64,000 nt of DNA from an uncultured bacterium (GTDB lineage: Bacteria; Zixibacteria; MSB-5A5; CAIYYT01). Made by a program: the position numbers and the translations under genes. Shown piece after piece: positions 1-54,971 of the stretch. Within the stretch, counting starts at the first letter, position 1, and each line of letters begins with the position of its first letter. The stretch is taken from contig CAVSCK010000003.1 in NCBI GenBank assembly GCA_963726455.1, forward strand, positions 32,001-96,000, read 5' to 3'. Below the pieces are notes generated by a model. That model did no database searches. It saw nothing but the letters and a program-made list of their open reading frames with translations, and was not told the DNA's origin.

Positions 1-336
1 TGCGCACCGCTGATTATGGCTTTCAAGGACAATCCGTTTGACAAACCCCGGCGCTTCTTCCCTGTCGACTTTGCCTACCCTCGAACCTACATGGATGTAG
101 TCGACATCGTCTGCGATGATGGCTTGACTCTGGCGGCGCTTCCTCAGAATGTCAGGGAAACGTTCGACGGCATCACCTTCACGCGAAATTCATTATCGGC
201 CGGCGGTAGCGCTCGTATCATGACTCAGTTGATTATCGGCAAGTCCATCTATCCACCGGCATCCTATGCGAATGTCCGCGGCGTGTTCACCAAGATCGCC
301 GACGCCGCACTCGAACAGACTACGATTACTTACTGA
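1..336 (+). CDS. C-terminal fragment of a DUF3857/transglutaminase-associated protein (truncated by window edge)
   Basis: ORF 16-336 has FKDNPF..RRFFPVDFAYP and a terminal beta-rich segment typical of DUF3857-TGase C-termini. A paralog follows immediately. Confidence 0.7.
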   Translation, partial: CAPLIMAFKDNPFDKPRRFFPVDFAYPRTYMDVVDIVCDDGLTLAALPQNVRETFDGITFTRNSLSAGGSARIMTQLIIGKSIYPPASYANVRGVFTKIADAALEQTTITY

Positions 337-346
337 CGGCGGAACC

Positions 347-2269
347 ATGAGTAATCATAGCTTCGGAACAAACGTGTCGTCACGCAGCTTGCCGGTCTTC
401 CTGTTGGTGGCGTCGCTACTCCTGTTTGCCGCACCCGCAACAGCGGCACCGGCAGGCGCTGCCTCCGACTCCGTAGACGCGCGAGTGCTGGCGGAATCAA
501 CTACGATGAAGATTCATGACGACGGTACTGCCGAATTCTCTTTCAGGCGCCGCGTCCAGATCTGGAACGAGAACGGACAGAAATATGGTACCATGATCTT
601 TGAGGATTCTCGTTTCGTAAAGACGACCGAGGCAAATGCCCAGGTTTACAACTCCTCCGGCAATTTGATCCAGAAGAAGTCCAAGAAAGACGCGGTCAAA
701 GTCTGCGGTTATGGAGAGTATGCGCTTTACACCGACGACTGCGAATATGTTTTGCAGCTCGGAGCCGGCAACTTTCCTTTCATCGTCGACTATGAATATC
801 AGCAGAAAATCTCAACGCTCTTTTCCTGGCCATTTTGGCATCCTCAGCGGACGATCCCTGTCGACACCTCTTCCTATGTTCTCACGGTTCCGGCTGCATT
901 TGCCTTCAGAACCAAAGTCTTCGGCAACGTCGCTGACCCTCAAGTCGAACAAGTCGGCGACAATAAGATCTTCACCTGGAAAGCCGTTGATCTCCCGGCA
1001 TACGAATCGGAATCGTATATGCCGCCGGCACAATTGTTCCTTCCCGGCCTGATTTTCAACGCCGACAATTTCAAATTCGGCAAATTCCAAATCTCCGGAG
1101 CCGACTGGTCGTCGATATCGCGCAGCATCGACGACATAAATCAGGATGCCTACGAAATGAGCAAAGAGCAGCAGCAAACGCTCGACGAGATGTTTCCCGG
1201 CAAGAGTGCTGATCAAGCGGGACTTGATAGATTACACCGATTCCTGAGTTCACGGTCGCGTTACGTAGCCGTGAAAGTGGGACTGGGCGGCTGGCAAGCG
1301 CATCCCTCCCAGTTGACCTATAGCCATAGCTACGGTGACTGCAAGGATTTGTCGGCCATGTACGCCTCGATGTTCCGTTATATCGGCGCCCCGACTCGGC
1401 TCGCGCTGGCGATGACCAGGGATGATGGCCGGGTTGACCCGCGGTTTCCGATGATGAATTTCAACCATGTGTTCGTCTTCTACCTGAACGGCGCCGACAC
1501 AGTCTGGGCGGATCCGACGTGCTTTACCTGCGCCCTGGGCGATCTGCCCTGGACGGACGAGAACATTTTCGTACTGGCTGTGTCCTCCGATGGCGGCGCC
1601 TTGCTGCGAACACCGGCGTCTACGCCAGAGGAAAACGTCATTGAGCGTACTGCAACTTTGACGTTGGGTGCTGATCTCGGGCTGTCGATTGTCGGGAAAA
1701 TTCATGCCCGGGGCAATCCGGGAGCCGGCCTGAAGCAGTTGTCCAAAGAGGCGACGACCGGCTCACAGACCGAAATACTGAAATATTTCCCGCAAATTGT
1801 CAGCGACAATCTGCAAATCACTGAGTGCAAGGCCGATCCTGCCGTGGATAGGTTGTCGGAAGTCGTACTGAATTTCAAGGGAACGACCGCACGTTACCAG
1901 AGGCGCGTCAACGGCAAACTCTATCTCGATCTGTCTGCGCTTCCTATCATGAGCGGCCCGGAAGAGGTTGATCTTGTCGACCGAAAGTTTCCAGTCAACT
2001 GCCGCTATCCGCTGGGATTGGTCGACTCAATCACCGTTGTTGCACCGGCCGGATATTATTTCAGCGACGTGCCCGTTGACACGTCCGTCACCGACGACTT
2101 TGGGATTTTCCGCTACGCCAGCAATATCAGTTCCGACACACTTGTCGTAACAAGATACAAGACCTTCAATCTCTATGAGATTGACACTGCATCAATCCAG
2201 CCATTTATAGAACATCGTTACAAACTACGCACTCTGTCCAGACGCAGTCTGGTACTCGACAAACGCTGA
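347..2269 (+). CDS. DUF3857 and transglutaminase-like domain secreted protein
   Basis: Signal peptide after ATG347. Transglutaminase core motifs YGDCKDLS, FNHV and WADPT, with RYVAVKVGLGGWQAHP upstream. Confidence 0.85.
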   Translation: MSNHSFGTNVSSRSLPVFLLVASLLLFAAPATAAPAGAASDSVDARVLAESTTMKIHDDGTAEFSFRRRVQIWNENGQKYGTMIFEDSRFVKTTEANAQVYNSSGNLIQKKSKKDAVKVCGYGEYALYTDDCEYVLQLGAGNFPFIVDYEYQQKISTLFSWPFWHPQRTIPVDTSSYVLTVPAAFAFRTKVFGNVADPQVEQVGDNKIFTWKAVDLPAYESESYMPPAQLFLPGLIFNADNFKFGKFQISGADWSSISRSIDDINQDAYEMSKEQQQTLDEMFPGKSADQAGLDRLHRFLSSRSRYVAVKVGLGGWQAHPSQLTYSHSYGDCKDLSAMYASMFRYIGAPTRLALAMTRDDGRVDPRFPMMNFNHVFVFYLNGADTVWADPTCFTCALGDLPWTDENIFVLAVSSDGGALLRTPASTPEENVIERTATLTLGADLGLSIVGKIHARGNPGAGLKQLSKEATTGSQTEILKYFPQIVSDNLQITECKADPAVDRLSEVVLNFKGTTARYQRRVNGKLYLDLSALPIMSGPEEVDLVDRKFPVNCRYPLGLVDSITVVAPAGYYFSDVPVDTSVTDDFGIFRYASNISSDTLVVTRYKTFNLYEIDTASIQPFIEHRYKLRTLSRRSLVLDKR

Positions 2270-2643
2270 CTCCGCCTTTGCTTGCGCCGTCAGGAACCCC
2301 GAGGTTGTCCCTACAAGTCAGCAGTTCAAGTTGTTACGCCGGTTCCTGATTTCCGCGGAGGTCTCCTTCGCGCTAGCCATCTTATACAACTGATCTCCCA
2401 GACGCGAAATTGTGCAACCGGCGGCATCTCAAAACTGAATGTAACGAGTTTTGGGACAACCGCTCGCGTTTTCCGACGGACCGAAACCTCCTCCTCCCCG
2501 TTGTGGCAGGTACTGATCCCGCGCGGCACCGTTATTTCCTTGACTCATGTCCAACCGCCGGCGCGGGATTGTGACCTGCCACCCAAACCCATTTTTGTAG
2601 TGCCGAACACCAAAAATCTCAGTCAGCCCTATAAGTAGAGGGC

Positions 2644-2922
2644 GTTGTCGCCGACTTAGGCGCCGGCACGGTTTCCACCCGCGCCGACGACGGAGTCCGA
2701 CAGTGGCCAACTTGGTACCAAGAGTTGCCGTGCCCGTGGTGTGTCTACAACGCATCGCGTGGTGGCCTCCCGAGCTATCCCCAATCCGGGGCACGGCAAT
2801 AGTAAATGGCTTCGGGTCTGTTAGGGCTGCGTTCGCTTGTGCAGCGCATCCGGGAAGCATACATCTAGTGGTGTCTGCGACCATGATGCGCCAGGGTTTC
2901 CGCACCGGCGTTCGGCGACATC
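2644..2922 (+). ncRNA. Candidate structured non-coding RNA (unassigned)
   Basis: Nested long-range stems 2646-2654/2912-2920, 2660-2666/2905-2911 and 2725-2735/2789-2799, plus hairpin 2826-2845. G-U pairs favour the + strand. No credible ORF. Confidence 0.4.
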
Positions 2923-2947
2923 AATAGCGTAGCGCTACGCGCCCATT

Positions 2948-2992
2948 TATAAAAAGATTCCGCCAAGCCGCGAAAAGCGACCTGGCGGAAAA
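2948..2992 (-). terminator. Intrinsic terminator of the 3023-4419 gene
   Basis: Imperfect hairpin TTCCGCCA...TGGCGGAA followed by TCTTTTTAT on the minus strand, about 30 nt after the stop codon. Confidence 0.7.
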
Positions 2993-3022
2993 GAAAGGAG
3001 AAATTTATGATCGACTAATTAG

Positions 3023-4419
3023 CTAGGAGGCGCAGTGCGGAGTCGCTCCGCCGGCGAAAATATACTGAATCAGGAATACGGCATCGGAAATATCAACGGC
3101 GCTGTCGCCATTGGCGTCGCCGGCTCCGTTACCCGTGCCGCTGCAACTACATGCTCCCGGCTGCGCGCCGCCGGCAAATATGTATTGAATCAGGAATACG
3201 GCATCCGAGATGTCCACGGCGCCGTCATAGTTGGCATCTCCGCAGTGGCAAATTCCGACGTGGACTACCAGCGGACTCGACCAACCGGCCGACTGTTGCC
3301 ATTTGTCCCTGGTTAGTACCTTGACATTATATGTTCCGTCGTTCAACCAGCGATGCCCTATCATGCAGGTATCACCGGAAGTGTACGGGCCGCGCCAGGC
3401 AGAAGAATCGCCTTCGCCGAATACCCATCTGTAGTATACCTGGTCGAGGTCAGGATCAGTTGCCGACGTCGACATTTGGTAAAGTTGATTTGGAGTAAAC
3501 ATCACGCAGGATGACGACGGCTGCGCTGCCGCACCTGGAAGCGCATTGGTCAATTCGTTGTTGCTTACCACAAATTCCATCTTCAATTGCGTGGAACTGA
3601 GATAGGTCAGCGACACTTGCAGGAATACATCTTGCGTTGGACGAACCTTGCAGGAATCGATCTTGGGTGTGTAATAGGACAGTGCCGAATAACCGCCCTG
3701 TTGAACCTGATACCCGCCATCAAAGAGTGCCGTCGGCGTGCCCCAGTAGTTGTATGTCGCCGCCGCGTAGTCGTGTGCTTCCTGAAGCTCGTCGACGACT
3801 CAAGGCCGCGTAACGAAATTGGTATGTACCCATTGACCAGATTTGATGCAATGCAGACCGCATTGCCGGACAGGACGTTCAGGTATGGTCGGTAACTTCT
3901 TCGAGAAAGACAGTATGTGTGTACCCTCCCGAAGCAGTGTCCGTGGCAACCTGACCCGGATTCGCCGACAGCTACGGCATCCACCCAGTGAGCCATAAAC
4001 GGATTCCACGGCCCCGGCGGGTACGCGTAGGCCGGGTGGTCATCCGAGTTGAACAACACCGCAATCACCTGAATATTTCCCTGCGCCAAGCCGGTTCCAC
4101 TCCAGGAAACCGTTTCGTGAATCGTGTCCCGGTAGTTCAGAGTGATCATCTGATTGTACGCGAAACCGAGAAATCCAAAATCGTAGTTGGCACCGTCGGC
4201 ATCCGTGTACCGGGACGTCGGTTCGACAACATACAATCGCAGGTATCCCTTGTATTGATGTGTCTGCGCGTCACGCAGATTGCCTTCCTGTGTATTGGCA
4301 GGCGAAACCGGCAACTGAATTGTTCCCCCGCTATCGCCTGCTGTGGCAGACCCCACCATTGCGACAAGCAAGCACAACAGGATGCTCGTATACCTGAACA
4401 GTGCTTTAACCTTGGTCAT
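3023..4419 (-). CDS. Secreted Omp28/thioredoxin-like (UxxC) + PKD + dockerin-like protein; candidate selenoprotein (two apparent +1 frameshifts near 3955 and 3800)
   Basis: Joining three frames gives a full-length match to paralog 4606-5997. The middle frame reads HTVFLEEVTDHT*TSCPAMRSAL with TGA at 3879-3881. The C-terminus has two GDANxDxAVDISDAVFLIQYIFAGG repeats. Confidence 0.8.
3848..3881 (-). promoter_or_regulatory. Putative Sec UGA codon plus bacterial SECIS-like hairpin
   Basis: UGA, 12 nt, then GCAAUGC-GGUCU-GCAUUGC (7-bp perfect stem, loop starting with G). The hairpin is absent at the same position in the Cys paralog. Confidence 0.65.
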
Positions 4420-4552
4420 TGACCGGAATTCCTTTCTTCAGAGGACACAACGTTTGTATCGACACCTGGTATTATCTCATGAACTTACTAGCTAGTCAAC
4501 CTCGTTCTATATCAGAACTTTGTAGACCGCATATTCCATATCCGTGCGACAA

Positions 4553-4591
4553 CCACAAACAGAAGGGCATCCGCATACACGGATGCCCTTC
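4553..4591 (-). terminator. Intrinsic terminator between the two dockerin paralogs
   Basis: 12-bp inverted repeat GAAGGGCATCCG/CGGATGCCCTTC (4562-4591) followed by TGTTTGT on the minus strand. Confidence 0.7.
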
Positions 4592-4605
4592 GTTATCGAA
4601 TCGAC

Positions 4606-5997
4606 TTACATTCCAGAGCAGTGTGGGCTGGCGCCGCCCGCAAAGATGTATTGAATGAGGAAGACAGCGTCGGAGATGTCAACCACGCCATCACCGTTGG
4701 CGTCGCCTGCGCCATTGCCGAAGCCCGAACAGTTGCAACTGCCCGGCGTAGCTCCACCGGCGAAGATGTATTGAATCAGGAACACGGCATCGGAAATATC
4801 AATTGTGATATCGCTATTGGCGTCACCGCATTGACAATTGGACACAGTCACCTGCACCGGAGCCGACCAGCCATTGGACGTCTGGTAGGTGTCCTTCACC
4901 AGTGCCTTGACATCGTAAGTTCCCGGATCAGTCCAGCGGTATGTAATCATTGCCGTATCACCTGCGGGATACGGACCGATCCAGTCAGTCGTGTCACCGT
5001 TACCGAAAGTCCATTTGTACATAAGCGGATCGTTCTCAACGTCCGTCGCGCTGGTGACGAAATTGCGGAACTGATTGGTCTGGAACATAACGCAATCAGT
5101 CGTCGGTTGCGTTAACACCGGCCTCTTGTTGAGGTCGCGGTCGTACACTTTCACGGTAATGTTCAACTGGGTCGCACTGACGAACTCCACGGAAGTCCAA
5201 AGATAGAAATCGTCGACCGTTCTTGCTCCCGCCGCCAAAATGCTGGGCGTGTAAGCGCTGATGGCCGAATATCCCCCTACGACGTTGGCAAAGCCGCCAT
5301 CGAAGAATGCCGTTGGATATCCCGCGATATTGTAGTCGCCGACAATGCGGTTGTAAGCATCCGGAATCAGTGTTCCGTAGCTATAGTTCTGGGTGATCAT
5401 TGCCGCAAAACGGAATTGATAGGTTCCCATTTGCCAGATCTGTTCTAGCGCCGAACTCATGGCCGGGCAATACTGGCACCATTGTGCGGTACCCTCTTCC
5501 AAGAATACCGTATGCGTGTAGGCGCCACTCGCCGTGTCCTCGCCCGGAACGCCGGGAATTGCCGATGCCGTCGCATCACAGTAGTACGCCGTGAAGGGAT
5601 TGCCGCCGGTGTTCGCCGAATGGGGTGTTCCGTTAAACACAGTGGCAATAACCATGATGTTGCTTGAGGACATCGCCGTGCTGTTGAACGTGACGTTCTT
5701 TGTCAATGTGTCGCCGATGTTCAGAGAGAGCGCCTGATTAACGGCAAAACCCAGAAAGCCGAAATGGTACGGGACGTTGCTAAAGTCCCGGAAACGGGAT
5801 GTCGGCTCGACGACGTACACTTTCAATGTGCCATTGTAAGCATTAGCATCCCGGGTGTCGGCAACCGGCTGGACGCTTTGGGATACAATTTGATGATCGA
5901 CCTTGCAGACGTTCTCCGCATTGGCGCCGACGGCTGTAAGCATCAACAGACACAACAGAGCGCCGGAAAATCTGAGAATTCCTCTGGCAGTGATCAT
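4606..5997 (-). CDS. Secreted Omp28/thioredoxin-like (CxxC) + PKD + dockerin-like protein
   Basis: Signal peptide, EEGTAQWCQYCP, cis-Pro-like GYPTAFFDG, PKD-like YKWTFGNGD...PGTYDVK, and paired GDAN..DISDAVFLIQYIF repeats. Confidence 0.85.
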   Translation of the reverse strand: MITARGILRFSGALLCLLMLTAVGANAENVCKVDHQIVSQSVQPVADTRDANAYNGTLKVYVVEPTSRFRDFSNVPYHFGFLGFAVNQALSLNIGDTLTKNVTFNSTAMSSSNIMVIATVFNGTPHSANTGGNPFTAYYCDATASAIPGVPGEDTASGAYTHTVFLEEGTAQWCQYCPAMSSALEQIWQMGTYQFRFAAMITQNYSYGTLIPDAYNRIVGDYNIAGYPTAFFDGGFANVVGGYSAISAYTPSILAAGARTVDDFYLWTSVEFVSATQLNITVKVYDRDLNKRPVLTQPTTDCVMFQTNQFRNFVTSATDVENDPLMYKWTFGNGDTTDWIGPYPAGDTAMITYRWTDPGTYDVKALVKDTYQTSNGWSAPVQVTVSNCQCGDANSDITIDISDAVFLIQYIFAGGATPGSCNCSGFGNGAGDANGDGVVDISDAVFLIQYIFAGGASPHCSGM

Positions 5998-6055
5998 TGA
6001 CTGGGGTCTCCTTTCTACAAAGGTGCACTAAATTTGTTTGAGAGGCATTTACTGT

Positions 6056-7235
6056 TCAAAATTGAAAACTGGTTCCTAACTCCACAGAAAATCCGGAATA
6101 CTTGAAAAGGCCATTAGTCGATTTGTTATGAAAATAATCAATCTGCAGCTTCGGCTGCAGCACCCGATCGCGGGCAACGGTTACCGATCTTGTGATCTGA
6201 ATGTAGGCGCGCGACAAATCATCGCTGCGGGTGATCTTGTTTCTGAAACTGACGAAGAATGGGAACTGGTAAGACCGCGGATCATTGGTGTTGAGAAACG
6301 TCTTGTTCCAGTAACCCGCGCCGGAAGTAATCGTAAAATTCGTCAACAGGTACGTCTTAATCGTCACGGTCACTGACGATGCCCTCCCACACAGATGTCC
6401 AGGGAGATAACAGCCCATTGGCGCTGGTAGCGGAAGCGAAAACCATAGTCGACTGCGTATTGCCAAAATGCCGGTAAAGAAACGTTGCGTTAATGCCGGT
6501 TTTTGATCCTAGTGGCCGAGACCAGCGCGGCGAAATGTAGAACGATGGAATCGTGCCACTCTTGAGAAGACTGTCAACCGGGAGCTGGGGTAACTCCATC
6601 AATCGATCGATTACGAAGCCGTCGCTCTTGACCTTGGAAAGATCGATGCTCCTATAATCCGCCCAGCCGAAACCCCACTCGACGTCAAGACTATTGCTTC
6701 CAAACGGAGTCGAGTTGAATCCTGCAAACACTTCAGTTGCCTGCTTGTCACCGCTCTCGGTAGCCAGGTAGGAAGTTGTCTGGAAAGTGCCGCCCAATCT
6801 CAGTGAGAGTCTGGGCATCAGTCGGTATCCGACGGCAACTCGACTGTTGAAATCATCACTGTCATACTTTGAAAAAGCCCGGCGGTAGCGGCGACCGTCG
6901 AATGAACCTGAGAGCGAAAGTGAGAAGCGGGAATTCTGCCCGATCGGAACTGCGGTAATTCCGACGCGGCCAAGACGGCTGGACAGATTCGGAACTTCCC
7001 CGTAGGTCGAAATATCGCCGGAGAGACTTGCCTCCAGCCAGGACAGCGGATAGTACTTTACCGCCCCGGTGCTGATGACATGGCGGTCGAGAGCGTCGGT
7101 AGAATCCAGAAATGAATTGCTGGTGTAACCGCTGCTGAATCCCATATCGAATTTCAGGTTGGCGTCGGCGCGCGACGCAAACAACAGCGCCAGTGTGGCA
7201 GCGGAGATCAGACTGACGAGGGAACGCGTTAGCAA
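6056..7235 (-). CDS. Putative outer-membrane beta-barrel protein (frameshift near 6370)
   Basis: Signal peptide, alternating amphipathic strands and a C-terminal ELGTSFQF. ORFs 6357-7235 and 6056-6466 overlap in different frames. Confidence 0.65.
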
Positions 7236-7243
7236 ATTAGTTC

Positions 7244-7700
7244 TCAGCGGCAGATCCCTCCCACACAGCAGCCCCCAACCATAGACCCCGCGGCAACATC
7301 GGTCGTTGATCCGCCGAAATCATTTCCTGAACCAAATCCGCCGCGGCTTGCCATACCGCAAAACATGCGCTGTTTAATGGCAAGAAACGCGCTGCTGTTG
7401 TTCAGAAAGAGTTCCTTCTGCGGAACCAAACTTTTGTCAAAGTCGAAGAAACCGCCGCTGATGGTAGTGCCTACTGCCGCGCTATCCGTGCCGGCTTCGG
7501 TACTATTCAGCTTTGGGCTGATCGAGAGGGGCACTGGTTGACTGGGAGGTGAGATCATCAAAGCCGTCACCATCCAAGTCAACAAAGACTGGCTTATTCG
7601 GCTGTTCCTTGGTTTTGTCCGCCGCGTAAGAAGATTGGTGCGCCAGGACAACGCCCAGGAAGATAGCCAAGATGCCAATCACCGTGAAAAATTTCTTCAT
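7244..7700 (-). CDS. Small secreted protein with EF-hand-like DLDGDGFDD motif and Cys-rich tail (frameshift near 7510)
   Basis: ORF 7503-7700 has a signal peptide and FVDLDGDGFDD. It continues in ORF 7244-7678, ending GGCCVGGICR. Confidence 0.55.
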
Positions 7701-7898
7701 TGGCAGACTCCGGCGTTTATGCTGCTAAGAACGCAATATATCGTATGCAAGATATGCGTATTTTGTCAAAATCGCAACACAAATTTCGCCCTAAGGCAAA
7801 GAACGGCATACAAATCTACCTCATCGGGGCGATTGTCATTATTCCGCGTGACAAGTGTGATTATTGGGGCCGCGACTTTCTCGGTATTCCTGCGCCCC

Positions 7899-7931
7899 AA
7901 AAAGGAGAGGCGCCGGGTCAGCCCGGCGCCT
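7899..7931 (-). terminator. Intrinsic terminator of the large surface protein gene
   Basis: AGGCGCCGGG-TCAG-CCCGGCGCCT hairpin, then CTCCTTTTT on the minus strand. Confidence 0.75.
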
Positions 7932-7974
7932 AGAGTAGAATGTGAATGTGATTCTATGACTTATGTAGTATGTC

Positions 7975-10900
7975 TTACTTCATCAACACCATCTTGCGAG
8001 TCTCGCTCAGCCCGGCAGCATCCAGACGGTAGAAATAGACGCCCGTCGCCACGGCCTGGCCGCTCTGGTCGGTTGCATCCCAGGTTACGGTCATTGTGCC
8101 TGCGCCGAAACCGGTGTAATGCTTCACGACCTGGCCGCTCACGTTAATGACGCTTAGCGTCCACTCCGTCGGGGTCGGAAGCGCAAAGCTAATGTTCGTT
8201 GTCGGATTAAACGGATTCGGGAAGTTCTGTCCGAGGACAAAATCAGTCGGCAATCCAACCTTGTTGACGCGCGTATCGAGCATGTTACCGTAGTAGTCGC
8301 TGGCTTCCAAATGGGTTACTTCGCAGTTACCCGGAACACTGAACAGCTCAACGCTGCCGGCCGGAATGACCGCGCCCTTGGAAATGGAACTGATAAGGAT
8401 GCTCATCCGGTCGCCGTCAATTGACGTCTTGACGTCCATGTCGGCCAGACTCAAGCCCTTGAGTAATTCGGTGGCCGCCATGCCGTTTGTCTTCAGTTGC
8501 AGGTACAGACCGCCGATTTGCGTTGGAGATTCAGCAGTAATCCTGGTCATGCCATCGGTCTCCTGCACCCGGAAACTCGCTTGATCTCCAAACGGGGACA
8601 GCTTGGGAATCGGCAACGCGTCGCCGGTGATAATGCGCAGCATGTAGACCAAATCGCCTACTGTCAGGGTGCGGCCGTCATTGTTGATGTCGGACGCCGC
8701 GGTCTGCGCCGGGATCGAAAGCGTGAAAACGGAAATACCTTTCAAGAAGTAGTTGGTGTATAGCACCGCATCGGAAATCTCGTTGGCGACGCCGTTTAGG
8801 TTCATATCTCCGCGGGCATCGATAGAGTCATTGGCGATGATACAGATGAACCCGTTATGATAGTCGACGCAGCGAATCGGCACTTCCTTGCCGCCGATCA
8901 AGCATTCGTCGGGGGCGCCTACGCCCGGATAACGGCCCGTCTCCGGGTAGTTGATTTCATCAAACTCATCCCAGAGTACGTGTTCAGGATTGTAAATCAC
9001 CTTGTCGATCAGAAGCGTGTCACCGGTGACGGTCGAGACGGCGTTATCGCCGCAGTCGAGCCAGTAGAATTCCACCGGATAGGTCAGACCGGCAAAACTC
9101 GAATTCTGCGTGACGCGGAACGTCAACACGGCCACGGTACCTGTCGGACGGAACTGCGAGGCCGGAGGATGCGCGGCGCCGTTGTTCATGTCAGCGAGGG
9201 CAACGATTCGCACCATTCCGGACGGACAACCTCCGCCGCAATTGCCAAACGGTCCCAGGCGATATGTGAAATATTCCCAGCCATTGATCGCAGAGCCGAG
9301 ACTGGCCTGGATAAATGTGAAGGCCGTGACATCGTAGCCGATCAACATATCAAAGCCACCGATAGCAACCTTGCCCTGCTCGACGTTGATGTCGACTTGC
9401 ACCTGAGAACCGAGCGTGATACAAGGAGTCTGCTCGATGCTAACCACCATGCAGGCCGAATCGCAGCGGTCATATGTGACGTCGTAACTGTAAACACTGG
9501 TTGCGGTGTCATTGCATTGATTCACGCGATAGAAAGTAAAGTCATATTTCCGGCTTACATCAACGCGCGGCGAGAAGCAAAGCTGTCCGGTGCCACCGTT
9601 GTAGCCGAATGACCAGGATATTCCGGCGTCGCTCGGGACGACCGTGATCGTCGTGTTCAACTGAGGATCGGAGTAAGTAACATCCTTGCAGATGTTGCCG
9701 ATGGTATCACCGAAACAGACCACCGTATCCCCTGCCGGTGGCAGCACCACCGCAGGCGGTTCACTGATAAAATTCACCTGCCAGTTAACGGTGCCTGTGT
9801 CGGCTTTGCCGCAACTGTCGGAGACAATGATGTTCCAGGTGAAAGTACCGCCCGATTGCGGAGTAAAGCAGAGCTGGCCGGTCGCCGGATTGAGAACGCC
9901 GGGGCCGCTTTGCAGCGCATAAGTCAACCGGGCCATGATCGAATCTATGGCGGTTACGGTAAAGCAGAGTTGAGTCGGTCCGCAGACGTTTTGTGGAGTC
10001 AGCGTCGGCATCTGGATGATCGGAGTTTGATTGACAAGGACGTTGATAAGGTAGAGCGCCGTGTCTTTCGCTCCGCACGGATCGGCGGCTATGACGTTCA
10101 CCGCCCATTGACGGCGTCCTTCGCCACCCGACCAAACGCACAGGGTTCTTCCGACAATTTTGCCCATCGTAGAAGTGAACGTCAGATTGTCGTTATCCGG
10201 ATCGCTGACGTTAATCGGAACGCAAACCGTTTCGGGCGCGCAAAGCGTGAAGTTGCCGCCACCGGTTGTGATATCCGGAGGATGGTTCACGGTGACGACG
10301 GCTGTGCCGGTATCATAAGCGACCGCGCCGCAGGCGTCGGTTGCTTTGAGCACGAATTGATAGGTTCCCGAAGCGGGAGGCGTGAAGCAGATGCTAGTGC
10401 CATTATAGGTACCCGGGCCGGAAACCAAGATGCATGAACTTAAATCGCCGTCAGGATCGCTGCAAGATGCAGGCAGACAAATCTGAGAGGTTGTGCAGCC
10501 GCTAACAACGGTATCGCGAACCTGCGCCACCGGCGGGCGATTCAGATGAACGTTGATGAATGCCGTGTCGTAGGCGCTGACGCCGCAAAGGTCGGTTGCT
10601 TTCATAACAAATTGGAAGTTTCCGGTGGCCGTGGGCGTGAAGCAAATCTGGGTGCCGTTGAAGGTGCCCAGGCCGGATATCAACTGGCAGGACTCCAGAT
10701 CGTTATCCGGATCGGCGCAACCCGCAGGCCAGCAGATCTGAGTCGGCGCGCACAAGGTTAACGATGAATCGCGGCCGGCATAGGCAATCGGCGGTCGATT
10801 CAACACGATATTCACTACGACCGTGTCGCGCACGACACCGCCGCAATCATTGTTGGCATAGAAACAGAATATGTACTGACCGGCTCCCGTCGGTGTGAAA

Positions 10901-12219
10901 CAAAGTTTGTTGGCGGCGATGGAGCCCGGACCGCAATCCTGATAAACAGGAACGGGGCCGGAAGGCGTGCTCGCCGTCACCGGGAAACAAACCGGTTCAA
11001 GTTGGCAAATTTTGATCGTGGTGTCGGGAATCGTAACGATTGTCGGCGCGACATGCCAACGCACACGGTAGATGATGGTGTCGCGCGGGCAAGGCAGTTG
11101 CTCTCGCGGCAGCGGCAGCGAGTAACAGCACGAGTCGGACGCCATCACGATGAATCGGTACTCGGCGGAATCGACGGCATTAGGCAGGAAACAAATCCGG
11201 CCGGTCGCGGAATCGATTATGCCGGGGCCGCTCAAGAGAGTGTACTTGACGGCATCGCCATCGGGATCGGTGGCATTGACGACATCAAAGCAGAGCGTGT
11301 CGATGGTGCAGAGTAACGTATCGAGAAAGTCGGGATTGACTGTAAGAGTCGGAAGATTCTGGAAGACCAGATGCACATCAAACGTGTCGACCAGCGAATT
11401 GCCACCCTGATCGGTCAGACTGAATATGAAACGATAGTCGGTGATAGCATAAGAAGTCGGCAGGAAACAATAGCGATAAGACAACGGAGACGGACCGGAG
11501 GTCAGAGTGCTCGGCGTGCCGCTGATGATCTCGGCCAGAGTGAGATTTCCCACCCCGCCGGCTGCATGAATTTGGAAACAGATCGAATCGGGATTGCAGA
11601 CGCTGACATTGCTGGAGCCGTCGAAGCTGAGGAACAACTGGTTGGGATCCTGGAAGCGGACTTCCGCAATGTAGTCCTGGTAATCCTGATCACCGCCGTT
11701 CGGCAAGTCTTCCCACGCTAGCAAGTACTTGCCGGGAGTTCCGGTAGAGAACACCTTGACGTGATTGAACAGGTCCCAGTTGAGCGCTGCCTGGCTGAGC
11801 CAGGTGTCGTCGTACAGAGTTGGTCCCTCGTAGAAACCGATCGAATCGCCCAGCGGAGTAGTGAAGGTGGTCATCGAGCCGATGAGCGCACTTCCCCCGA
11901 ACAGTTGATTCTTGATATTCGGCGTCGCTTTGGAATACCAACCGAAAGCCGGGCTGGATGCCGAACTCCGGTATTTTAGCGTCACTTCTCCCGATGCTCC
12001 CCCTACCGTGGGGGCGAGCACCTGTAAAGGTACCTCGTCGGTGGCGACATTGATTGTGTAGCCAAGACTGTCTAACGCATTTTGCAGGGTGGGGCCACCG
12101 TTAAGTGCGGTCGCTTTCAGCGAATCGCTCCAGGGCGTCGCACCACCTGCGGCAAAAGCACTAGCGGTGGACAGCGCCAAGATCAGGGTTAGACTGGCGA
12201 GGGTCGATAAAACTTTCAC
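7975..12219 (-). CDS. Large Cys-rich secreted protein: DUF4114-like, cadherin/Ig-like repeats, cohesin-like, dockerin-like and FlgD/T9SS-like C-terminal domain
   Basis: GTG12219 follows GGAGAG and precedes a signal peptide. Motifs include LAWEDLPNGGDQDYQD, repeated DPDxD...ICFTP units, GGFDMLIGYD, RGDMNLNG..ISDAV/SDINNDG..TVGDLV and QNFPNPFNPTT...ATGVYFYRL...KMVLMK. Confidence 0.85.
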   Translation of the reverse strand: MKVLSTLASLTLILALSTASAFAAGGATPWSDSLKATALNGGPTLQNALDSLGYTINVATDEVPLQVLAPTVGGASGEVTLKYRSSASSPAFGWYSKATPNIKNQLFGGSALIGSMTTFTTPLGDSIGFYEGPTLYDDTWLSQAALNWDLFNHVKVFSTGTPGKYLLAWEDLPNGGDQDYQDYIAEVRFQDPNQLFLSFDGSSNVSVCNPDSICFQIHAAGGVGNLTLAEIISGTPSTLTSGPSPLSYRYCFLPTSYAITDYRFIFSLTDQGGNSLVDTFDVHLVFQNLPTLTVNPDFLDTLLCTIDTLCFDVVNATDPDGDAVKYTLLSGPGIIDSATGRICFLPNAVDSAEYRFIVMASDSCCYSLPLPREQLPCPRDTIIYRVRWHVAPTIVTIPDTTIKICQLEPVCFPVTASTPSGPVPVYQDCGPGSIAANKLCFTPTGAGQYIFCFYANNDCGGVVRDTVVVNIVLNRPPIAYAGRDSSLTLCAPTQICWPAGCADPDNDLESCQLISGLGTFNGTQICFTPTATGNFQFVMKATDLCGVSAYDTAFINVHLNRPPVAQVRDTVVSGCTTSQICLPASCSDPDGDLSSCILVSGPGTYNGTSICFTPPASGTYQFVLKATDACGAVAYDTGTAVVTVNHPPDITTGGGNFTLCAPETVCVPINVSDPDNDNLTFTSTMGKIVGRTLCVWSGGEGRRQWAVNVIAADPCGAKDTALYLINVLVNQTPIIQMPTLTPQNVCGPTQLCFTVTAIDSIMARLTYALQSGPGVLNPATGQLCFTPQSGGTFTWNIIVSDSCGKADTGTVNWQVNFISEPPAVVLPPAGDTVVCFGDTIGNICKDVTYSDPQLNTTITVVPSDAGISWSFGYNGGTGQLCFSPRVDVSRKYDFTFYRVNQCNDTATSVYSYDVTYDRCDSACMVVSIEQTPCITLGSQVQVDINVEQGKVAIGGFDMLIGYDVTAFTFIQASLGSAINGWEYFTYRLGPFGNCGGGCPSGMVRIVALADMNNGAAHPPASQFRPTGTVAVLTFRVTQNSSFAGLTYPVEFYWLDCGDNAVSTVTGDTLLIDKVIYNPEHVLWDEFDEINYPETGRYPGVGAPDECLIGGKEVPIRCVDYHNGFICIIANDSIDARGDMNLNGVANEISDAVLYTNYFLKGISVFTLSIPAQTAASDINNDGRTLTVGDLVYMLRIITGDALPIPKLSPFGDQASFRVQETDGMTRITAESPTQIGGLYLQLKTNGMAATELLKGLSLADMDVKTSIDGDRMSILISSISKGAVIPAGSVELFSVPGNCEVTHLEASDYYGNMLDTRVNKVGLPTDFVLGQNFPNPFNPTTNISFALPTPTEWTLSVINVSGQVVKHYTGFGAGTMTVTWDATDQSGQAVATGVYFYRLDAAGLSETRKMVLMK

Positions 12220-12556
12220 ATTCACTCTCCGGAAAGCGTGGGGTTCTTCTTTGCTCGCGCCATGCTCCAAAGCGTGCGCAGTTATAGCGTACTCAGGTAA
12301 GAGTTGGGCCTCGTTCGAGTAAAAGTTCACTTTAACTTCAGCCGCAAAAGCACAGCGAGAAGTACACTTACGCAGACGTGGCTAATATATGTATGGGGTG
12401 CTACAAAGTCAAGGTCTTTCGGGTGTTCGGGAATGTACTAAAACTATACATAACTTAAGGTTATGGATTGCAAGGGGTTCTCGTTCGGATAAATGCGCAG
12501 GCCCAGTGCGAATTGGGAGGGAGCGTGAAGGAGGTGCTGTCAAGAATGGAGGCGCA

Positions 12557-41477: not shown

Positions 41478-43814
41478 TCAGTTTCTCTCAGTTGGCGACG
41501 GCGTCATAAGATCACATTTTCCTACGCAGTTGACGTGAACGCCGCCGCGGTCATTAATGATGTCGGCGAAAACGACGGGTTTCTTCGCGCGGAAGATTTC
41601 GGTTGATTCGTGGCTAACGACGCTGCCGCCGACGATTACCGCTCGATGGAGTCGGCCTTTATCCTGTTGCAGGAACGTGAAATCGGCGTCGCTAGTGATG
41701 GAGCCGTGCTTCACGGAACCGGATGCGATGAATGTCTCCAGGCCGTTCAGCGTCAGCTTTGCCGTAGCGTTGCCGCAAGATTCGATCACATCAATCTTGT
41801 CAGGCAGCGACCTGTCAGCGTGACACGGCACAGCCATATAAATTCGCATACTGATTTCAGCAGGTGGTGGGGAAATCGTGATGCGGCGGCCGGGATAAGA
41901 TGAAAGATAGTCATTGGAAATTCCGAAGGGTTGAACCCGAATGTCGGCGGGTGTCACGCCGGAGACGCAAGGGATCAGCGCCAGTCGGCCTAACTTTCCA
42001 TTCAACAAGAGACTATTGCCGGAGCGCGAGACGTCACAGGGAGTGACGAAATTCCATTCGGGCTGCACCGGCGTGGTCGCGGACACTGTGTCGCGAATAA
42101 TCCAGAGCATATCATGAAGAAACAGCACTGCTCGCGAGATTGTCACTATGCGCCGATCTATTTTGATCTTGTAGAATGCTTCGTAGAATCCGGACGATGA
42201 AGTCCGGTGACAGACTTGCATTTGGCAGTCGGGTTTCTGTGACCAGCCAAAGGGGTCGCACGGCTTTTCCAGAGACAGACCGGCAATTGTCGGTCCATTG
42301 TGCGCGGCGGCGGATCGATAGAGATTGCGCTTCTGCGGATCGGAGGTGTACGCGAACGTTCCGGGATCGACAAGGAAATTGTCGACGCCGACGGATATGT
42401 CGAGGTGGAGCATGTCGGCATGCGAATGCGGTGAATCGAGATATCCGAATTTGCCGCACTGGAATACCGAGTACATGCCATTTTCCGAGCGCGAAATGAT
42501 CAGTCCGGAATCGCAGAGGCCGATTGACTGGGCTATGGCGACCGGTCGCCGATTTGCTTTCCGATCGCCGCAGAACCAGAATGCATCAGTGTAACCGTCG
42601 GTCGCACCGTCTTGGGTCTGCCCAAGGAATTTCCCACAAGCCTCCAATAGCGGGCGAAAGTCGCAAGCAGGGACACGGCTGAGAAAGAACAGTCGACCGC
42701 CGTCCTCATCTCCGATATGTGGCCAGGTTCCATCGGGTCGCTGCAGCGAGGCCAGTATTTCAGTTGCCTGACGCAATCGTTCCCCGAATGATGCTTCGAG
42801 CGTTATCTGCCGTTGACGACATACTGTCAGCAACGACAGCAGAAACTCGACAGCATAGCCGTGATAGGCGGTTGAAAGTTCAGCATGCATGCCGTCAGCA
42901 GTATATTGACGACCAAGTTCCATTAACAGGACATCGTGGCCAGTTTGCACCCACACGTCGGCATCATCGAACTCCGGAAAGAGCAGTCCGACCATAAAGA
43001 GCGAATAGGCCTCTCCCAGTAAGTGAGTATTGGGAGAGAAATAATATGACAAGTGGCTTCTCACGAAATCTGCGCCTGAATAAACAAGATCATACAGACC
43101 CCTGGCACATTCTTCTGTCAACAGCCGGGAGTCCTTGAAAAACCAGGCACCCCAAAGAAGGGAGTGAAGCCGAAAAGCGGACTCCAATGCCGAACAAAAG
43201 TTAATGCCGTGATAGTCACGATTGGCCGTTCTCCAATCTAGCAGCAACTCGAAAAACTTTCGAGAGTACTTTTCATCTTTCGTGAGGAGATAGGCTTGCC
43301 CCAAGTCGTACACAAACTGAAGTCGAGATAGCTCCCAAATGACCTTTGAGTCGCCAACTACCTCTGGATCCAGGTATTCGATGTCGGCATAGAAACAGTC
43401 AGGCGCGACCACACCGAGAATTGGATCATAGTCCCACCTTGGCGGATCACCGTAGGACACAAAACCTACATTGAAAACGGGAAAAAGATTGTTGCATACT
43501 TGATCGGCTGCAGCCACGATCCGATTCCGCTCTGTGGTTGAATTTGCCCCGACAAATTCTCCGAATTTATCCCGCGCGAAAAAGCCAGGCATGAACTCAG
43601 AATCAGTGTGTGATTTCAAAGCAGTCACAAAATCCAACTTCCGATTGCTCGTAACAAATCGACGATAATACTCATCACTGAACGTCGATTCTCTCCTGCA
43701 GTGAATGCGTCGCTCCTGAAGTCGGCGCCATTCTTCGAACAGGCGATACGAAAGCTCCTTGAACTCGCCTCTTCCGACCTTCTTGAAAATCTTCAACAGC
43801 TTGTCAGCGCGCAT
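41478..43814 (-). CDS. Heparinase II/III / alginate lyase-like protein
   Basis: DSKVIWELSR, SPNTHL, DGMHAELST.YH, IGDEDGG, HSHADMLH, DPGTFAY and AAHNG. Confidence 0.85.
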   Translation of the reverse strand: MRADKLLKIFKKVGRGEFKELSYRLFEEWRRLQERRIHCRRESTFSDEYYRRFVTSNRKLDFVTALKSHTDSEFMPGFFARDKFGEFVGANSTTERNRIVAAADQVCNNLFPVFNVGFVSYGDPPRWDYDPILGVVAPDCFYADIEYLDPEVVGDSKVIWELSRLQFVYDLGQAYLLTKDEKYSRKFFELLLDWRTANRDYHGINFCSALESAFRLHSLLWGAWFFKDSRLLTEECARGLYDLVYSGADFVRSHLSYYFSPNTHLLGEAYSLFMVGLLFPEFDDADVWVQTGHDVLLMELGRQYTADGMHAELSTAYHGYAVEFLLSLLTVCRQRQITLEASFGERLRQATEILASLQRPDGTWPHIGDEDGGRLFFLSRVPACDFRPLLEACGKFLGQTQDGATDGYTDAFWFCGDRKANRRPVAIAQSIGLCDSGLIISRSENGMYSVFQCGKFGYLDSPHSHADMLHLDISVGVDNFLVDPGTFAYTSDPQKRNLYRSAAAHNGPTIAGLSLEKPCDPFGWSQKPDCQMQVCHRTSSSGFYEAFYKIKIDRRIVTISRAVLFLHDMLWIIRDTVSATTPVQPEWNFVTPCDVSRSGNSLLLNGKLGRLALIPCVSGVTPADIRVQPFGISNDYLSSYPGRRITISPPPAEISMRIYMAVPCHADRSLPDKIDVIESCGNATAKLTLNGLETFIASGSVKHGSITSDADFTFLQQDKGRLHRAVIVGGSVVSHESTEIFRAKKPVVFADIINDRGGVHVNCVGKCDLMTPSPTERN

Positions 43815-44932
43815 CGGCCAACTCCCGATAGGTATGCGCCCACTGCCATTTGACGACCGGCCAACGGCATTTTTGGGCGAAATCTTTGCCGCCGGCAATA
43901 ATTGTCTGGCGCAATTCAGTATTCTCAATGACTTCAGTCAGGGCGAGAGCGAGCGCGTTGGCATCTTTCATTGGAACCAGCAGGCCGCTGACGCGATTCT
44001 GAACGATATACGGTATGCCGCCGGCATCGGTAGTAACGACAGGCAGGCCGGCATAGAAGGCCTCGATAATGGCGACAGGCATGTTGTCAATGATGGAACT
44101 ATTGAGAAAGATGTCGGCAGCGTGAAACAGTTTCGGCATTTGGGAACGCTCCACTCGGCCGGTAAACGTGATGTTGGGAACGCCGAGTTGCTGCGCAATA
44201 ATCTTGAGGCGTCGCTCGTCGGAACCATCACCGGCAATCGTGAGAGTGGCGGCATGGAAATTTGGGTTTGACCAGGGCAAACGCGCGCAATGAGGTTTCG
44301 ATGTCATACAGAGGTTCGAGATTGCGGGCGATCAGGATATGCGGCGTCACCTGCGAACGGTCGCGGCACTGGAAGGCGGCGAAGTCGGAGATATTGTAAA
44401 TCGATTCGGCGCGAAATCCGAATTTGGCGAAAACATCAACGAGATAGCCCGAGGGCACAACGATCTTATTCGCCAGACGAATGATCCAGAAGATGCGATT
44501 GCCCGAGCGGGTGAAATGATCGTCGGCCTCGCCGGAACGATAATTGAGAATCTTCTTTTTGCCGTAGAGAGTTGCGACCAGAAGTGCCGGGGTCGGCGCG
44601 AGAATAAATGAGAAGTAGCTGGCGGAGAAAATGTGAATTACATCGTAGCGCCAGACTTTGAAGAAGAGCGATGCAACATAGAATAGCGAGACAATCAGGG
44701 TACGCACATATTTGATGCGGGTCAGATATTTCAGTGGTCCCCAAGGTTCCGGATTGATCGGAAGCAGGTCGGCACGGACACCTTCGGCGCGCAGGTTGCT
44801 GAGCAACAGGTCGGCTTGCACGGCCTGGCCGCCCATAATCGCCAGGGACGGCGCGACTAGCAGGACGCGTGTGCCTTTAAGTATGTCAGCGACGGATCGG
44901 TTTTCGGTCTCGGTCGCACTCGCAGATGACAT
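43804..44932 (-). CDS. Glycosyltransferase family 4 (frameshift near 44260)
   Basis: GGQAVQA, HIFSASY, NYRSGEA, ARNLEPLY and DNMPVAIIEAFYAGLPVVTT. Confidence 0.85.
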
Positions 44933-46268
44933 AGCGATATTTTCCCGACTGTTCATAATGAAGGTGTTCAACCGGTTCATAGGTTACATCAATCGGCGCA
45001 CCGAGCGCCTCACTGATCTTCTGCTTAAATTCGCGCTGCTGATCGTCCGGGACGGGCTGTCCGATAAGGTGCCTGACCACCAGCGACGACGGCGAGGTCT
45101 GCACGACCTGCACCTGTACGCGGATGCCGGATGTCCGCAAGTTGGTGATGATTACCAGGCCTTCGACTTTGGAACCGTCGGGTCGGATGATCATGTCGAT
45201 GACGCGGCCGCCGATAGCGATGATTCGACGCCAGGTGCAACCACAGGGACATGGCGCATCAGCCAAAGTGACCATATCACCCGTGCGATAGCGGATAAGC
45301 GGCATGCCGTAGTTGTAAAGATCGGTCACGACCAGCTCGCCCATCTTTCCCAGCGGAAGTGGGTTGCCATCCCTGTCAATTACTTCAAGATAATAAGACG
45401 GCTCGAAAATGTGCATGCCGTTGTGACTCTGACATTCGGAGGCGACAGTGCCGATTTCGCGGGCGCCATAACGCTCGAAAGTTTCGGCATGGAATACCTG
45501 CTCGAACAATTTGCGCTGCCAGTCATATAGTGGTTCGGCAGTAACAATAATTCTGGGGATCGGAGTCATGGCGATACGTTGCGCCTGGGCGCGCTGCGCC
45601 ATCGCCGAAAGCATATTCGGATAGGCAATAATGGCGCGCGGATGATAGTCGTTCAACTGCCGCAGGAAATCGTCGATGCTGTCTGGCGTGGCGTCGAAGG
45701 CATAGAAATATATCGCACGTTCGGTGAGAAAATTCGCCAGACGGGCTTTGATCGACCTCATGCTGAAGGCATCGATATGCGAACCCCAGACCCAGGCGCG
45801 TTTGGTGCCGGGGAAGATGCCAAGCCGCGCATTGAACAGGTAGTCCTGGGCACGGCGGACGTTTTGTGCGCCCCGGTCACGAAAGAAAGTGAGCGACAAC
45901 CCCGACGAACCGCCGGTGGATGAAGTGATCAGATCTGACTTGGCGAAAGCCGATGACAGGAAAGCATCGATGTCGCGATTGAGTTCTTCCTTGATCAGAA
46001 ACGGGAGTCTCGACAAGTCCGCGAATGAAGTCACCTTGCGCGGATCGAGGCCGTGCCGGCGAAACAATTCGGCATAGTGAGTGGTGGTGGCGTCCGCATG
46101 TGTCAGGATCGCGACCAGCGATTTTAGGCGATGCTGCTCCAGAGCTTGGCTGTCTGCCGTTACCAGAGGAGTAAATCGGCGTTGCCGGGAGAGAATTCCA
46201 TACTCCCCTTTATATGTGAGCCAGACGCGATGGCCGAAGTGGCGGACGAAGAATTCGGCGAGACTCAA
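44886..46268 (-). CDS. Phenylacetate-CoA ligase family / CapK-like adenylate-forming enzyme
   Basis: STGGSSG, YGAREIG, MPLIRYRTGD, GRVID and SGKYR. Confidence 0.88.
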   Translation of the reverse strand: MSLAEFFVRHFGHRVWLTYKGEYGILSRQRRFTPLVTADSQALEQHRLKSLVAILTHADATTTHYAELFRRHGLDPRKVTSFADLSRLPFLIKEELNRDIDAFLSSAFAKSDLITSSTGGSSGLSLTFFRDRGAQNVRRAQDYLFNARLGIFPGTKRAWVWGSHIDAFSMRSIKARLANFLTERAIYFYAFDATPDSIDDFLRQLNDYHPRAIIAYPNMLSAMAQRAQAQRIAMTPIPRIIVTAEPLYDWQRKLFEQVFHAETFERYGAREIGTVASECQSHNGMHIFEPSYYLEVIDRDGNPLPLGKMGELVVTDLYNYGMPLIRYRTGDMVTLADAPCPCGCTWRRIIAIGGRVIDMIIRPDGSKVEGLVIITNLRTSGIRVQVQVVQTSPSSLVVRHLIGQPVPDDQQREFKQKISEALGAPIDVTYEPVEHLHYEQSGKYRYVICECDRDRKPIRR

Positions 46269-47771: not shown

Positions 47772-48888
47772 CTAGCTGGTGAAGCCGAATTTGATGGCTT
47801 TGCGGTTACAGGTGCTGATGCACTCACCACAAGAGGTGCAATCGGGAAGAGTCAGGTTTTTGCCCTCGACCAGCGGTTTTATTGTGGGACACGGACTCTT
47901 GATGACGCAGACCTGACAATCGTTGCAGAGCTTGCGGTCAATGCGGACGCGTCCCGGAGCGATCTTTTCAAGCAGCCAAGTGAAGGCGCCGATTGGACAC
48001 ATGGTATAGCAGAAGGGCCGGAATAGGACCAGACTCGCGAGCACCAATGCCGACGCCAGAACCCACCAGAGAATGTTGATATTGTAATGGAGCAACTCGA
48101 AGAAGTTGACCGGGTCATAAATGCTGTAAGCCGAGTAGGCGGTCAGCAGATCAGGCGGGATTTGGGGAGCTTCCTGGCCGAGGTATGAAATTGCCACTTG
48201 ACCTGGAAGATCGTGAAAAAGAACATAATCAATAGTGCGAAGCGGATGCTGTTGAAGACCGGAAAATTGATCTGTTTCCAGCGCCACTTAAAAGGAATCT
48301 TGTTGATAAGCTCCTGTATGGCTCCCAGCGGGCAGACCCAGCCGCAGAACAGCTTGCGGCCGATAATGCTTGGAATCATCATCGCCAGAAAGATCGCGAA
48401 GAAGATCGGGACGATTGATCCCTGCGTAAAGCCGAAAGTGAACAGCTTGGTGGCGCCGCACATCGGACTGGGATGAACGAAAAAGATCAAATCCGATCCA
48501 AACAGCCCGAACGCCACGACGAGTGCCCCGAGGCGCACCCAGCGATTGGTGAATTTCAGGAATAGCAGGACAATGCCGGCGACCATCAGGCCGTACCAGA
48601 CCAAATGCTTGGTCATGAACAGATAGTCGATGGTAGTCGGGGCGGGCCTTCTTCCTCGGCGACGGGTTCGCTTTCGTGGCGGCCGCCCATAGTAGCCGAC
48701 GATGCGGACGAATCTGCCGATTGATCCTGAGCAAATTCGTGCGTGTGTCCGGTTATTGCGGTGGAATCGGCAGCGGGTTCGGCGGCGATTACGAGACGGA
48801 AAACAGCGAAAACAGGCCAAATGCGGCCACGACAAGGTGCTGCGAAGAGACGCAGAGAAAACGTGCTATGCAAAGAATTTCTAATCAC
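47772..48888 (-). CDS. NapH/RdxA-like membrane 4Fe-4S binding protein (several frameshifts)
   Basis: [29 protein letters not shown]...CP and [12 protein letters not shown] across adjacent frames. Confidence 0.8.
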
Positions 48889-54806: not shown

Positions 54807-54971
54807 GGCTCGATGATACAATACGTAGTGACAATCTGCAATTGCTTTTGGTAAACGTGTCAACTGCGCGTGAGTTGTTAGGGTTCATAAGTTTAGCTTG
54901 ACGCAGCGTGGTCAGGAGGTTATCGTTCGGCGATTTGATATCCGCGCCTCGGGCGCGTCTTTATTTACAGA

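Follow-up and report, generated by a model that had tools for sequence, protein, structure and literature searches.

A candidate exported selenoprotein with PKD and dockerin-like domains in a Sec/Cys-alternating family of Zixibacteria

Known UxxC selenoproteins and the architecture of the locus

Thioredoxin-like, peroxiredoxin-like and DsbA-like selenoprotein families with a UxxC motif, in which selenocysteine (Sec) stands before a cysteine (Cys), were described in the selenoproteomes of the Global Ocean Sampling (GOS) and Sargasso Sea data (PMC2398784, PMC1088965). A further family, GOS_C, was reported with a thioredoxin-like fold, a UxxC motif, 74 Sec sequences and a function given as unknown (Zhang & Gladyshev 2008, PMC2398784). 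The same family is represented by the profile NF045500, "Omp28-related selenoprotein", and is listed as "Hypothetical protein GOS_C", UxxC, in the table of a 2026 review (PMC13188914). We analyzed a stretch of 64,000 nucleotides, called the window, from an uncultured bacterium of the Zixibacteria (assembly GCA_963726455.1, contig CAVSCK010000003.1, positions 32,001 to 96,000), in which a gene at positions 3023-4419 of the minus strand probably encodes an exported selenoprotein of this general kind. An earlier note, made from the letters of the window alone, had proposed the gene as a thioredoxin-like UxxC protein with PKD and dockerin-like domains, whose TGA occupies the N-terminal Cys of a CxxC motif and whose frame is interrupted by two +1 indels.

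Three-frame translation showed that the coding sequence of the candidate is spread over three frames, all on the minus strand. Segment A (frame 0, 3964-4419) runs from an ATG at 4419 to about 3964 and encodes 152 amino acids, which make up most of an N-terminal beta-sandwich; its start, MTKVKALFRYTSILLCLLVAMVGSATA, is hydrophobic and was judged by eye to be signal-peptide-like. Segment B (frame 1, 3801-3959) consists of 53 codons (YTHTVFLEE...U-T-S-C) and reads PGQVATDTASGGYTHTVFLEEVTDHT-TGA-TSCPAMRSALHQIWSMGTYQFRYAAL, with ...GGYTHTVFLEEVTDHT-TGA-TSCPAMRSALHQIWSMGTYQFRYAAL immediately around the active site. Segment C (frame 2, 3026-3799) encodes 258 amino acids, comprising the remainder of the thioredoxin-like domain, a beta-hairpin region, the PKD domain and the dockerin, and is followed by a stop codon at 3023-3025. 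An intact tandem paralog of 463 amino acids with the same architecture (4606-5997, minus strand) sits 190 nt upstream and is of the Cys form, CQYC. Identity between candidate and paralog is 50% overall, with 40% for segment A against paralog residues 4-149 and 56% for segment C against residues 211-461. The in-frame TGA at 3879-3881 (tca on the plus strand) aligns without gaps with the first Cys of CQYC, which bears out the placement made in the earlier note, and thus forms the first position of UxxC, of which the resolving Cys codon lies at 3870-3872. The two +1 indels were also found, at about 3960-3963 and about 3800, and are treated below.

The fold was assessed on the Cys paralog, since the broken frame of the candidate left it unsuited to modelling. 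The full paralog model had a pLDDT (predicted local distance difference test) of 84. Because the Foldseek result for the whole model was dominated by the PKD domain, residues 50-290 were folded alone, giving a pLDDT of 92.3 and a predicted template modelling score (pTM) of 0.90. This model consists of a beta-sandwich packed onto a thioredoxin fold. In VIA-align it matched a thioredoxin-related protein with Z 11.0 and a root-mean-square deviation of 2.6 A over 107 residues, and the list was filled by thioredoxins; Foldseek matched thioredoxins with probability 1.00 and TMt up to 0.69. C125 and C128 are invariant in the family, and the helix at 128-141, the first helix, begins at the motif. The family also has an invariant P179 within a (Y/T)PT motif, which we take to be the cis-Pro of thioredoxins. 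Both accessory domains of the candidate passed their Pfam cut-offs: the PKD domain at 3308-3508 (PF00801, 34.7 bits against 23.5) and a type I dockerin-like module of two repeats, DISDAVFLIQYIFAGG, at 3059-3241 (PF00404, 48.1 bits against 22.9), both on the minus strand. The PKD region of the paralog matched the PKD domain 4xed in structure with TMt 0.84. The fold and the two domains are thus as the earlier note had read them.

The family of the candidate and GOS_C are alike in the thioredoxin-like fold, the UxxC motif with Sec first, the existence of Cys homologs, the SECIS-like stem-loop (SECIS, selenocysteine insertion sequence) after UGA and a presumed role in thiol redox chemistry. Unlike GOS_C, the family has an N-terminal beta-sandwich of its own, PKD and a dockerin; it is found in metagenome-assembled genomes (MAGs) of Zixibacteria type from sediment and soil and in Thermoplasmatota, whereas GOS_C comes from ocean reads. 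With the thioredoxin-fold UxxC selenoproteins described so far it shares Sec in place of the N-terminal Cys of CxxC, the alternation of Sec and Cys forms, and a SECIS in the coding region with a small, G-containing apical loop. The combination of PKD and dockerin with this catalytic domain occurs in none of the families listed in the available text of the GOS and Sargasso selenoproteomes. NF045500 was the sole selenoprotein model touched by the family, by four of 21 members at E <= 0.01. The paralog reached 22.2 bits, where the cut-off is 200, and aligned only in a stretch of about 90 residues containing the active site (profile positions 34-124 of 377); the family is therefore not a member of NF045500. 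Full-text literature on selenoprotein with dockerin, Zixibacteria with selenocysteine, and Omp28 with selenoprotein contained nothing on this architecture in the parts available, and the available text of the 2026 review (PMC13188914) makes no mention of Zixibacteria, Omp28, dockerin, PKD, "signal peptide" or "secreted". As the mechanism is the standard bacterial one, we regard this as a well-known kind of selenoprotein, represented here by a new family with a new architecture, and not as a new kind.

TGA and Cys forms, the downstream hairpin and the Sec machinery

Sixty related genomes were searched with the N-terminal 300 amino acids of the paralog, with stops read through, and 21 homologous genes were aligned. 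The active-site codon was TGA in 11 of them and Cys in the other 10. Most were complete open reading frames (ORFs) of about 450-490 amino acids that shared the signal peptide, the catalytic region, PKD and the dockerin-like end; three were shorter or ran off their locus. A scan of public MAGs, one genome per species, yielded 76 loci, 71 of which matched the active-site motif pattern. These loci came from Zixibacteria/Zixiibacteriota, from genomes labelled "uncultured Ignavibacteria" and similar, and from Thermoplasmatota archaea. Among the distinct bacterial genes TGA was present in 26/47 and Cys in 21/47, while all 31 distinct archaeal (Thermoplasmatota) genes had Cys. Recurrent TGA/Cys alternation, which the earlier note had suggested looking for, was therefore seen at exactly this codon both in relatives and in public MAGs. 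Two database proteins, P0002 (178 aa) and P0003 (183 aa), stop one residue short of the TGA position, as is typical of proteins truncated by gene callers.

Tandem arrangements like that in the window were found in other genomes, as Sec+Cys pairs (L064, L069, L072), Sec+Sec pairs (L070, L115) and Cys+Cys pairs (L084, L116). On a quick, midpoint-rooted tree whose only support values were SH-aLRT, at least four Sec/Cys changes were forced by well-supported branches and 11 by parsimony. Judged from these codons, this is a genuine family of predicted Sec/Cys alternation in Zixibacteria-type genomes. Thirty of the 31 archaeal genes fell in one group among the bacterial genes, a nesting that hints at transfer between domains; with the root placed at the midpoint, the tree does not show which way such a transfer went. 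The archaeal homologs of the catalytic region are of the CPYCPAM type (L049-L113; 35 loci in archaeal MAGs, chiefly Thermoplasmatota, corresponding to the 31 distinct genes).

The hairpin that the earlier note had described downstream of the TGA, GCAAUGC-GGUCU-GCAUUGC, was found at 3848-3866 on the minus strand, with a perfect 7-bp stem and a 5-nt loop, and begins 12 nt after the UGA. In agreement with the claim that the Cys paralog lacks it, the paralog forms three of seven pairs in the same register against seven of seven in the candidate. In the SECIS of E. coli fdhF, the hairpin starts about 11-12 nt after the UGA and has an apical loop containing GGUC. The candidate has a similar spacing and the loop GGUCU; its stem is shorter, and no bulged U is seen in the 7 bp. 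In PMC1088965 the bacterial SECIS is described as a stem-loop that directly follows the UGA on its 3' side and bears a small, G-containing apical loop. The candidate hairpin agrees with this wording, being an adjacent 3' stem-loop whose small loop, GGUCU, contains G.

The hairpin accompanies the TGA forms in the family. By eye, a stem-loop 12-15 nt past the TGA was present in all 11 TGA forms from relatives, with the loops GGUCU, GGUCG, GGGUC and CGUGC. Of the genes from MAGs, 21 of 26 with TGA and 13 of 52 with Cys had a perfect stem of 5 bp or longer that began 6-21 nt downstream of the codon. The median minimum free energy (MFE) of the 33 nt after position +9 was -8.9 kcal/mol for bacterial TGA genes and -5.6 kcal/mol for bacterial Cys genes (one-sided Mann-Whitney p = 0.0013), a comparison that is descriptive only because the sequences are related to one another. 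When the TGA sequences were aligned gapless by codon, two hairpin registers, 2 nt apart, were apparent. Taking the better register for each gene, the mean number of pairs out of seven was 5.68 for TGA genes, 4.05 for bacterial Cys genes and 4.03 for archaeal Cys genes, and at least five of seven pairs were formed in 23/25, 7/21 and 8/31, respectively.

Covariation was analyzed after a post hoc split by loop type into the two registers, the split being defined on loop columns and not on pairs. In the GGUCU-type class (14 rows including the candidate), 90.8% of cells were paired against 21-42% with slid partners, both sides changed in six of seven pairs, and the covariation score was reached by none of 500 shuffles. 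In the CGUGY-type class (12 rows), 77.4% of cells were paired against 33-61% with slid partners, and both sides changed in four of seven pairs. A stem in the coding region that is apparently kept by compensatory change and confined to TGA forms is what a bacterial SECIS looks like.

The genome also contains the machinery for Sec that the earlier note had proposed to search for: selA, selB, tRNA-Sec and a Sec-type selD were all found. The selA gene lies at C3:129968-131050 and adjoins selB, the tRNA-SeC gene lies at C3:131302-131395, and the three stand together at C3:128-131 kb. The Sec-type selD (C4:1791814-1792734) is intact with one in-frame TGA, which has a hairpin of its own about 13 nt downstream with a GUU loop. 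A second selD, of Cys type (GLGCACK motif), at about 645330-646300 of C3 on the plus strand, is spread over three frames with two +1 shifts. A genome-wide pattern search for sites of UGA plus hairpin gave four matches. In a sample of the class, SelA was found in 59 of 61 genomes and was not found in two, which are 89% and 52% complete; the former (G006) has TGA forms of the family. Because SelA is present in 59/61 genomes, its co-occurrence with the family is uninformative.

The two frame changes and the alternative explanations

The first frame change is located at 3960-3963 (minus strand), where four bases, GAAT, stand in place of the three expected. If one base is removed, the segment from AHWVD through THTVF is 29 residues long, as in the paralog. 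The second is one extra base near 3800 (minus strand), with a position uncertain within about 3796-3803; once a base is taken out, the segment from YAAL through FDGG counts 29 residues, where most homologs have 28.

We searched the whole genome for similar events using a hexamer coding-potential model trained on its long ORFs, with both frames required to be open across the junction. A first, loose scan gave 2677 events, mostly antisense artefacts, and was replaced by a strict scan with 211 events, of which 154 were +1 shifts and 57 were -1 shifts. The strict scan misses the two shifts of the candidate because the middle segment is too short for the 40-codon windows. All three events that it detected in the window correspond to visibly split genes: a TonB-dependent receptor (54939-55898 / 55819-58029, plus strand), a GT4 glycosyltransferase (44228-44983 / 43804-44331, minus strand) and a NapH-like 4Fe-4S membrane protein (48143-48865 / 47772-48287, minus strand). 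The events are clustered, with 29 same-strand pairs within 600 nt against 3.7 expected, and many of the clustered pairs are +1/+1 and 110-570 nt apart.

Of the 208 ranked events that lie elsewhere in the genome, the top 200 were sampled at even intervals, giving 20 events whose two sides were compared with Pfam. In six cases a single Pfam domain was divided between the two sides, its profile coordinates being contiguous: HSP70 (1-211/203-598), ABC_tran twice, Carboxyl_trans (92-421/423-483), DXP reductoisomerase (1-67/57-129) and OPT (1-101/98-501). Three others separated usual domain partners (PBP transpeptidase and PASTA; PG_binding_4 and YkuD; kinase-TPR and TPR). The remaining 11 were uninformative, at least one of them looking like an ordinary gene boundary. 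The split dxr (L133) has no second copy in the genome; dnaK is present twice, with one copy (L117) split. The extra base in this dnaK and that in the TonB-dependent receptor each double a neighboring base, in the receptor turning an AA run into AAA. Taken genome-wide, the frame switches look like residual insertion error of a long-read assembly.

Frame-switch events were also located at a penicillin-binding protein (PBP) gene (L124) and a release-factor gene (L129), and at two Redoxin/AhpC-type genes (L119, C4:1111811-1112300; L127, C4:1319713-1320289), each with one side unassigned. The latter two could be further frameshifted or UGA-containing redox genes.

We consider it probable, for the explanation as a whole, that the locus encodes a working selenoprotein and that its indels are assembly errors. 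The product would be a selenoprotein of about 465 amino acids with a signal peptide, a beta-sandwich and thioredoxin fold carrying U-T-S-C, PKD and a type I dockerin-like tail. The UGA at 3879-3881 would be read as Sec by SelB and tRNA-Sec, and decoding would be directed by the hairpin 12 nt downstream, acting as a bacterial SECIS inside the coding sequence. Once exported, the protein would most likely serve as a selenol/thiol-disulfide oxidoreductase outside the cytoplasm, and its dockerin would probably tether it to cohesin-bearing surface proteins. The upstream paralog would be the Cys version of the same enzyme.

Several observations weigh against this explanation. The gene as deposited is not translatable, and neither frameshift site is a long homopolymer. 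A protein search with the N-terminal 160 amino acids found no near-identical copy, only the window's own product and relatives of at most 52% identity, with the best non-self hit at 47%; metagenome contigs searched with the N-terminal piece gave no relative, and the exact degenerate pattern of the active-site peptide had no match in them. The Pfam Thioredoxin profile PF00085 stays below its cut-off (14.8 against 23.5 bits) and reaches E <= 0.01 in just one of 21 family members. As for the hairpin, a single fixed register over all 26 sequences paired just 67% of cells, RNAalifold on the 26-sequence gapless alignment with its mixed registers returned no consensus structure, and the covariation became clear only with the post hoc split. 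Four genes with the hairpin further 3' (L064, L085, L090, L095) were excluded from the covariation alignments; a fifth distinct gene with a shifted hairpin, L099, does not differ from L090 across the 51 nt used and was removed for this reason. Finally, the family was not found in two of three same-genus genomes (G002, G003). It is thus dispensable, and where an intact Cys paralog stands alongside, losing one copy would be tolerable.

Much of this also speaks for a recent pseudogene, that is, a gene which encoded a working selenoprotein until very recently, in which both +1 shifts are real and whose role the Cys paralog took over. The twice-broken frame, the paralog 190 nt upstream, the dispensability of the family and the absence of long homopolymers at the frameshift sites favor it, as do the frequent Sec/Cys switches and losses on the family tree. 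However, the candidate has no other lesion: all 16 invariant family positions and 42 of the 43 nearly invariant ones are kept, as is a perfect SECIS-like hairpin, and no stop is found in any piece, over 463 codons. The flanking signals are also intact. They are a promoter-like site, TTGACT-17-GATAAT with a TG extension (4471-4499, minus strand; about 50 nt upstream of the ATG, 10/12 consensus matches), which is a consensus match only in a region whose count of such sites is no higher than in its shuffles, and a terminator-like hairpin of 14 pairs and a T-run (2958-2990, minus strand) directly past the stop codon. Because the candidate is 50% identical to the paralog, it has long been under selection; its branch on the quick tree measures 0.58 against 0.66 for the paralog. 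Two independent indels with no other damage would then need a very recent double event after that long selection, whereas clustered +1 shifts 110-570 nt apart occur in many other genes of the assembly, including dxr and the second selD. We leave the pseudogene a minor but real chance, and think it likely that both shifts are single-base insertion errors of the assembly. The caveat of the earlier note, that a sequencing error or a pseudogene might lie behind the indels, is in this way decided in favor of error by the similar frameshifts of the assembly, including that in single-copy dxr, and decided indirectly only.

Two other explanations appear much weaker. A change from TGC or TGT to TGA takes a single substitution, and in a gene that is broken anyway the TGA could be a plain stop or nonsense mutation, the hairpin a coincidence and Sec absent. 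This would leave the TGA at the exact codon in 11/21 and 26/47 bacterial homologs, most of them otherwise complete ORFs, to chance, as well as a hairpin that covaries and tracks the TGA, the full Sec machinery, and the ends of P0002 and P0003 one residue before the position; we consider it very improbable. Programmed ribosomal frameshifting at both sites, regulating the synthesis of the selenoprotein, might be suggested by shifts in the same direction that bracket the Sec-coding segment. We find it scarcely credible: a slippery or hungry-codon motif like that of prfB was seen by eye at neither site, no frameshift is required in any of the 21 homologs from relatives, and shifts of identical appearance occur in unrelated genes throughout the assembly.

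The dockerin-like tail, neighboring features and meaning of the family

The C-terminal tail of the candidate, with its duplicated calcium-loop/helix, resembles the type I dockerins of cellulosomes (PF00404; the structures 3ul4, 4dh2 and 1daq were matched). The cargo differs, being predicted as a redox selenoenzyme in the family and a glycoside hydrolase in the cellulosomal system. About 145 further stretches of the genome match the dockerin-like tail, which for this reason appears to be a general surface-sorting tag here. Two ORFs at C5:151553-153832 (L137) and C5:154365-156422 (L139) matched the cohesin Pfam profile with 46 and 50 bits against a cut-off of 24.1 bits, and one of them also had dockerin and weak type IX secretion tail matches below the cut-offs. 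These ORFs, at C5:151.5-156.4 kb, are candidates for the scaffolds that would receive the roughly 145 dockerin-tagged stretches. Within the window, a surface protein of 1451 amino acids with Big_9 and cadherin-like repeats is encoded at 7975-12330 on the minus strand; its FlgD_ig tail passes Pfam and its type IX secretion sorting domain is just below the Pfam cut-off.

In the immediate surroundings, the paralog has a terminator-like hairpin of its own at 4562-4591. About 750 nt at 2270-3022, between a DUF3857/transglutaminase gene and the candidate, contain no convincing ORF; a 158-aa ORF at 2429-2905 had no Pfam match, and 2270-3022 had no Rfam match. The Rfam search of positions 1-9000 of the window gave just three sub-threshold chance matches.

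The hundreds of clustered single-base frameshifts in this assembly mean that its broken genes should not be read as pseudogenes. Gene callers cut members of the family at the UGA and no curated model covers it, so a recurrent selenoprotein of an uncultured phylum, predicted to be exported, goes unseen in annotation. Should the dockerin indeed tether these proteins to cohesin scaffolds, a system known mainly from cellulosomes would gain a new class of cargo, the redox selenoenzymes. It is possible, and we put it forward tentatively, that Zixibacteria-type bacteria display Sec-containing thiol oxidoreductases on the outside of the cell, with their dockerin tails in cohesin scaffolds, as an extracellular redox layer based on selenium. 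The Sec and Cys copies may then serve selenium-replete and selenium-poor conditions, and Thermoplasmatota may have acquired a version with Cys only.

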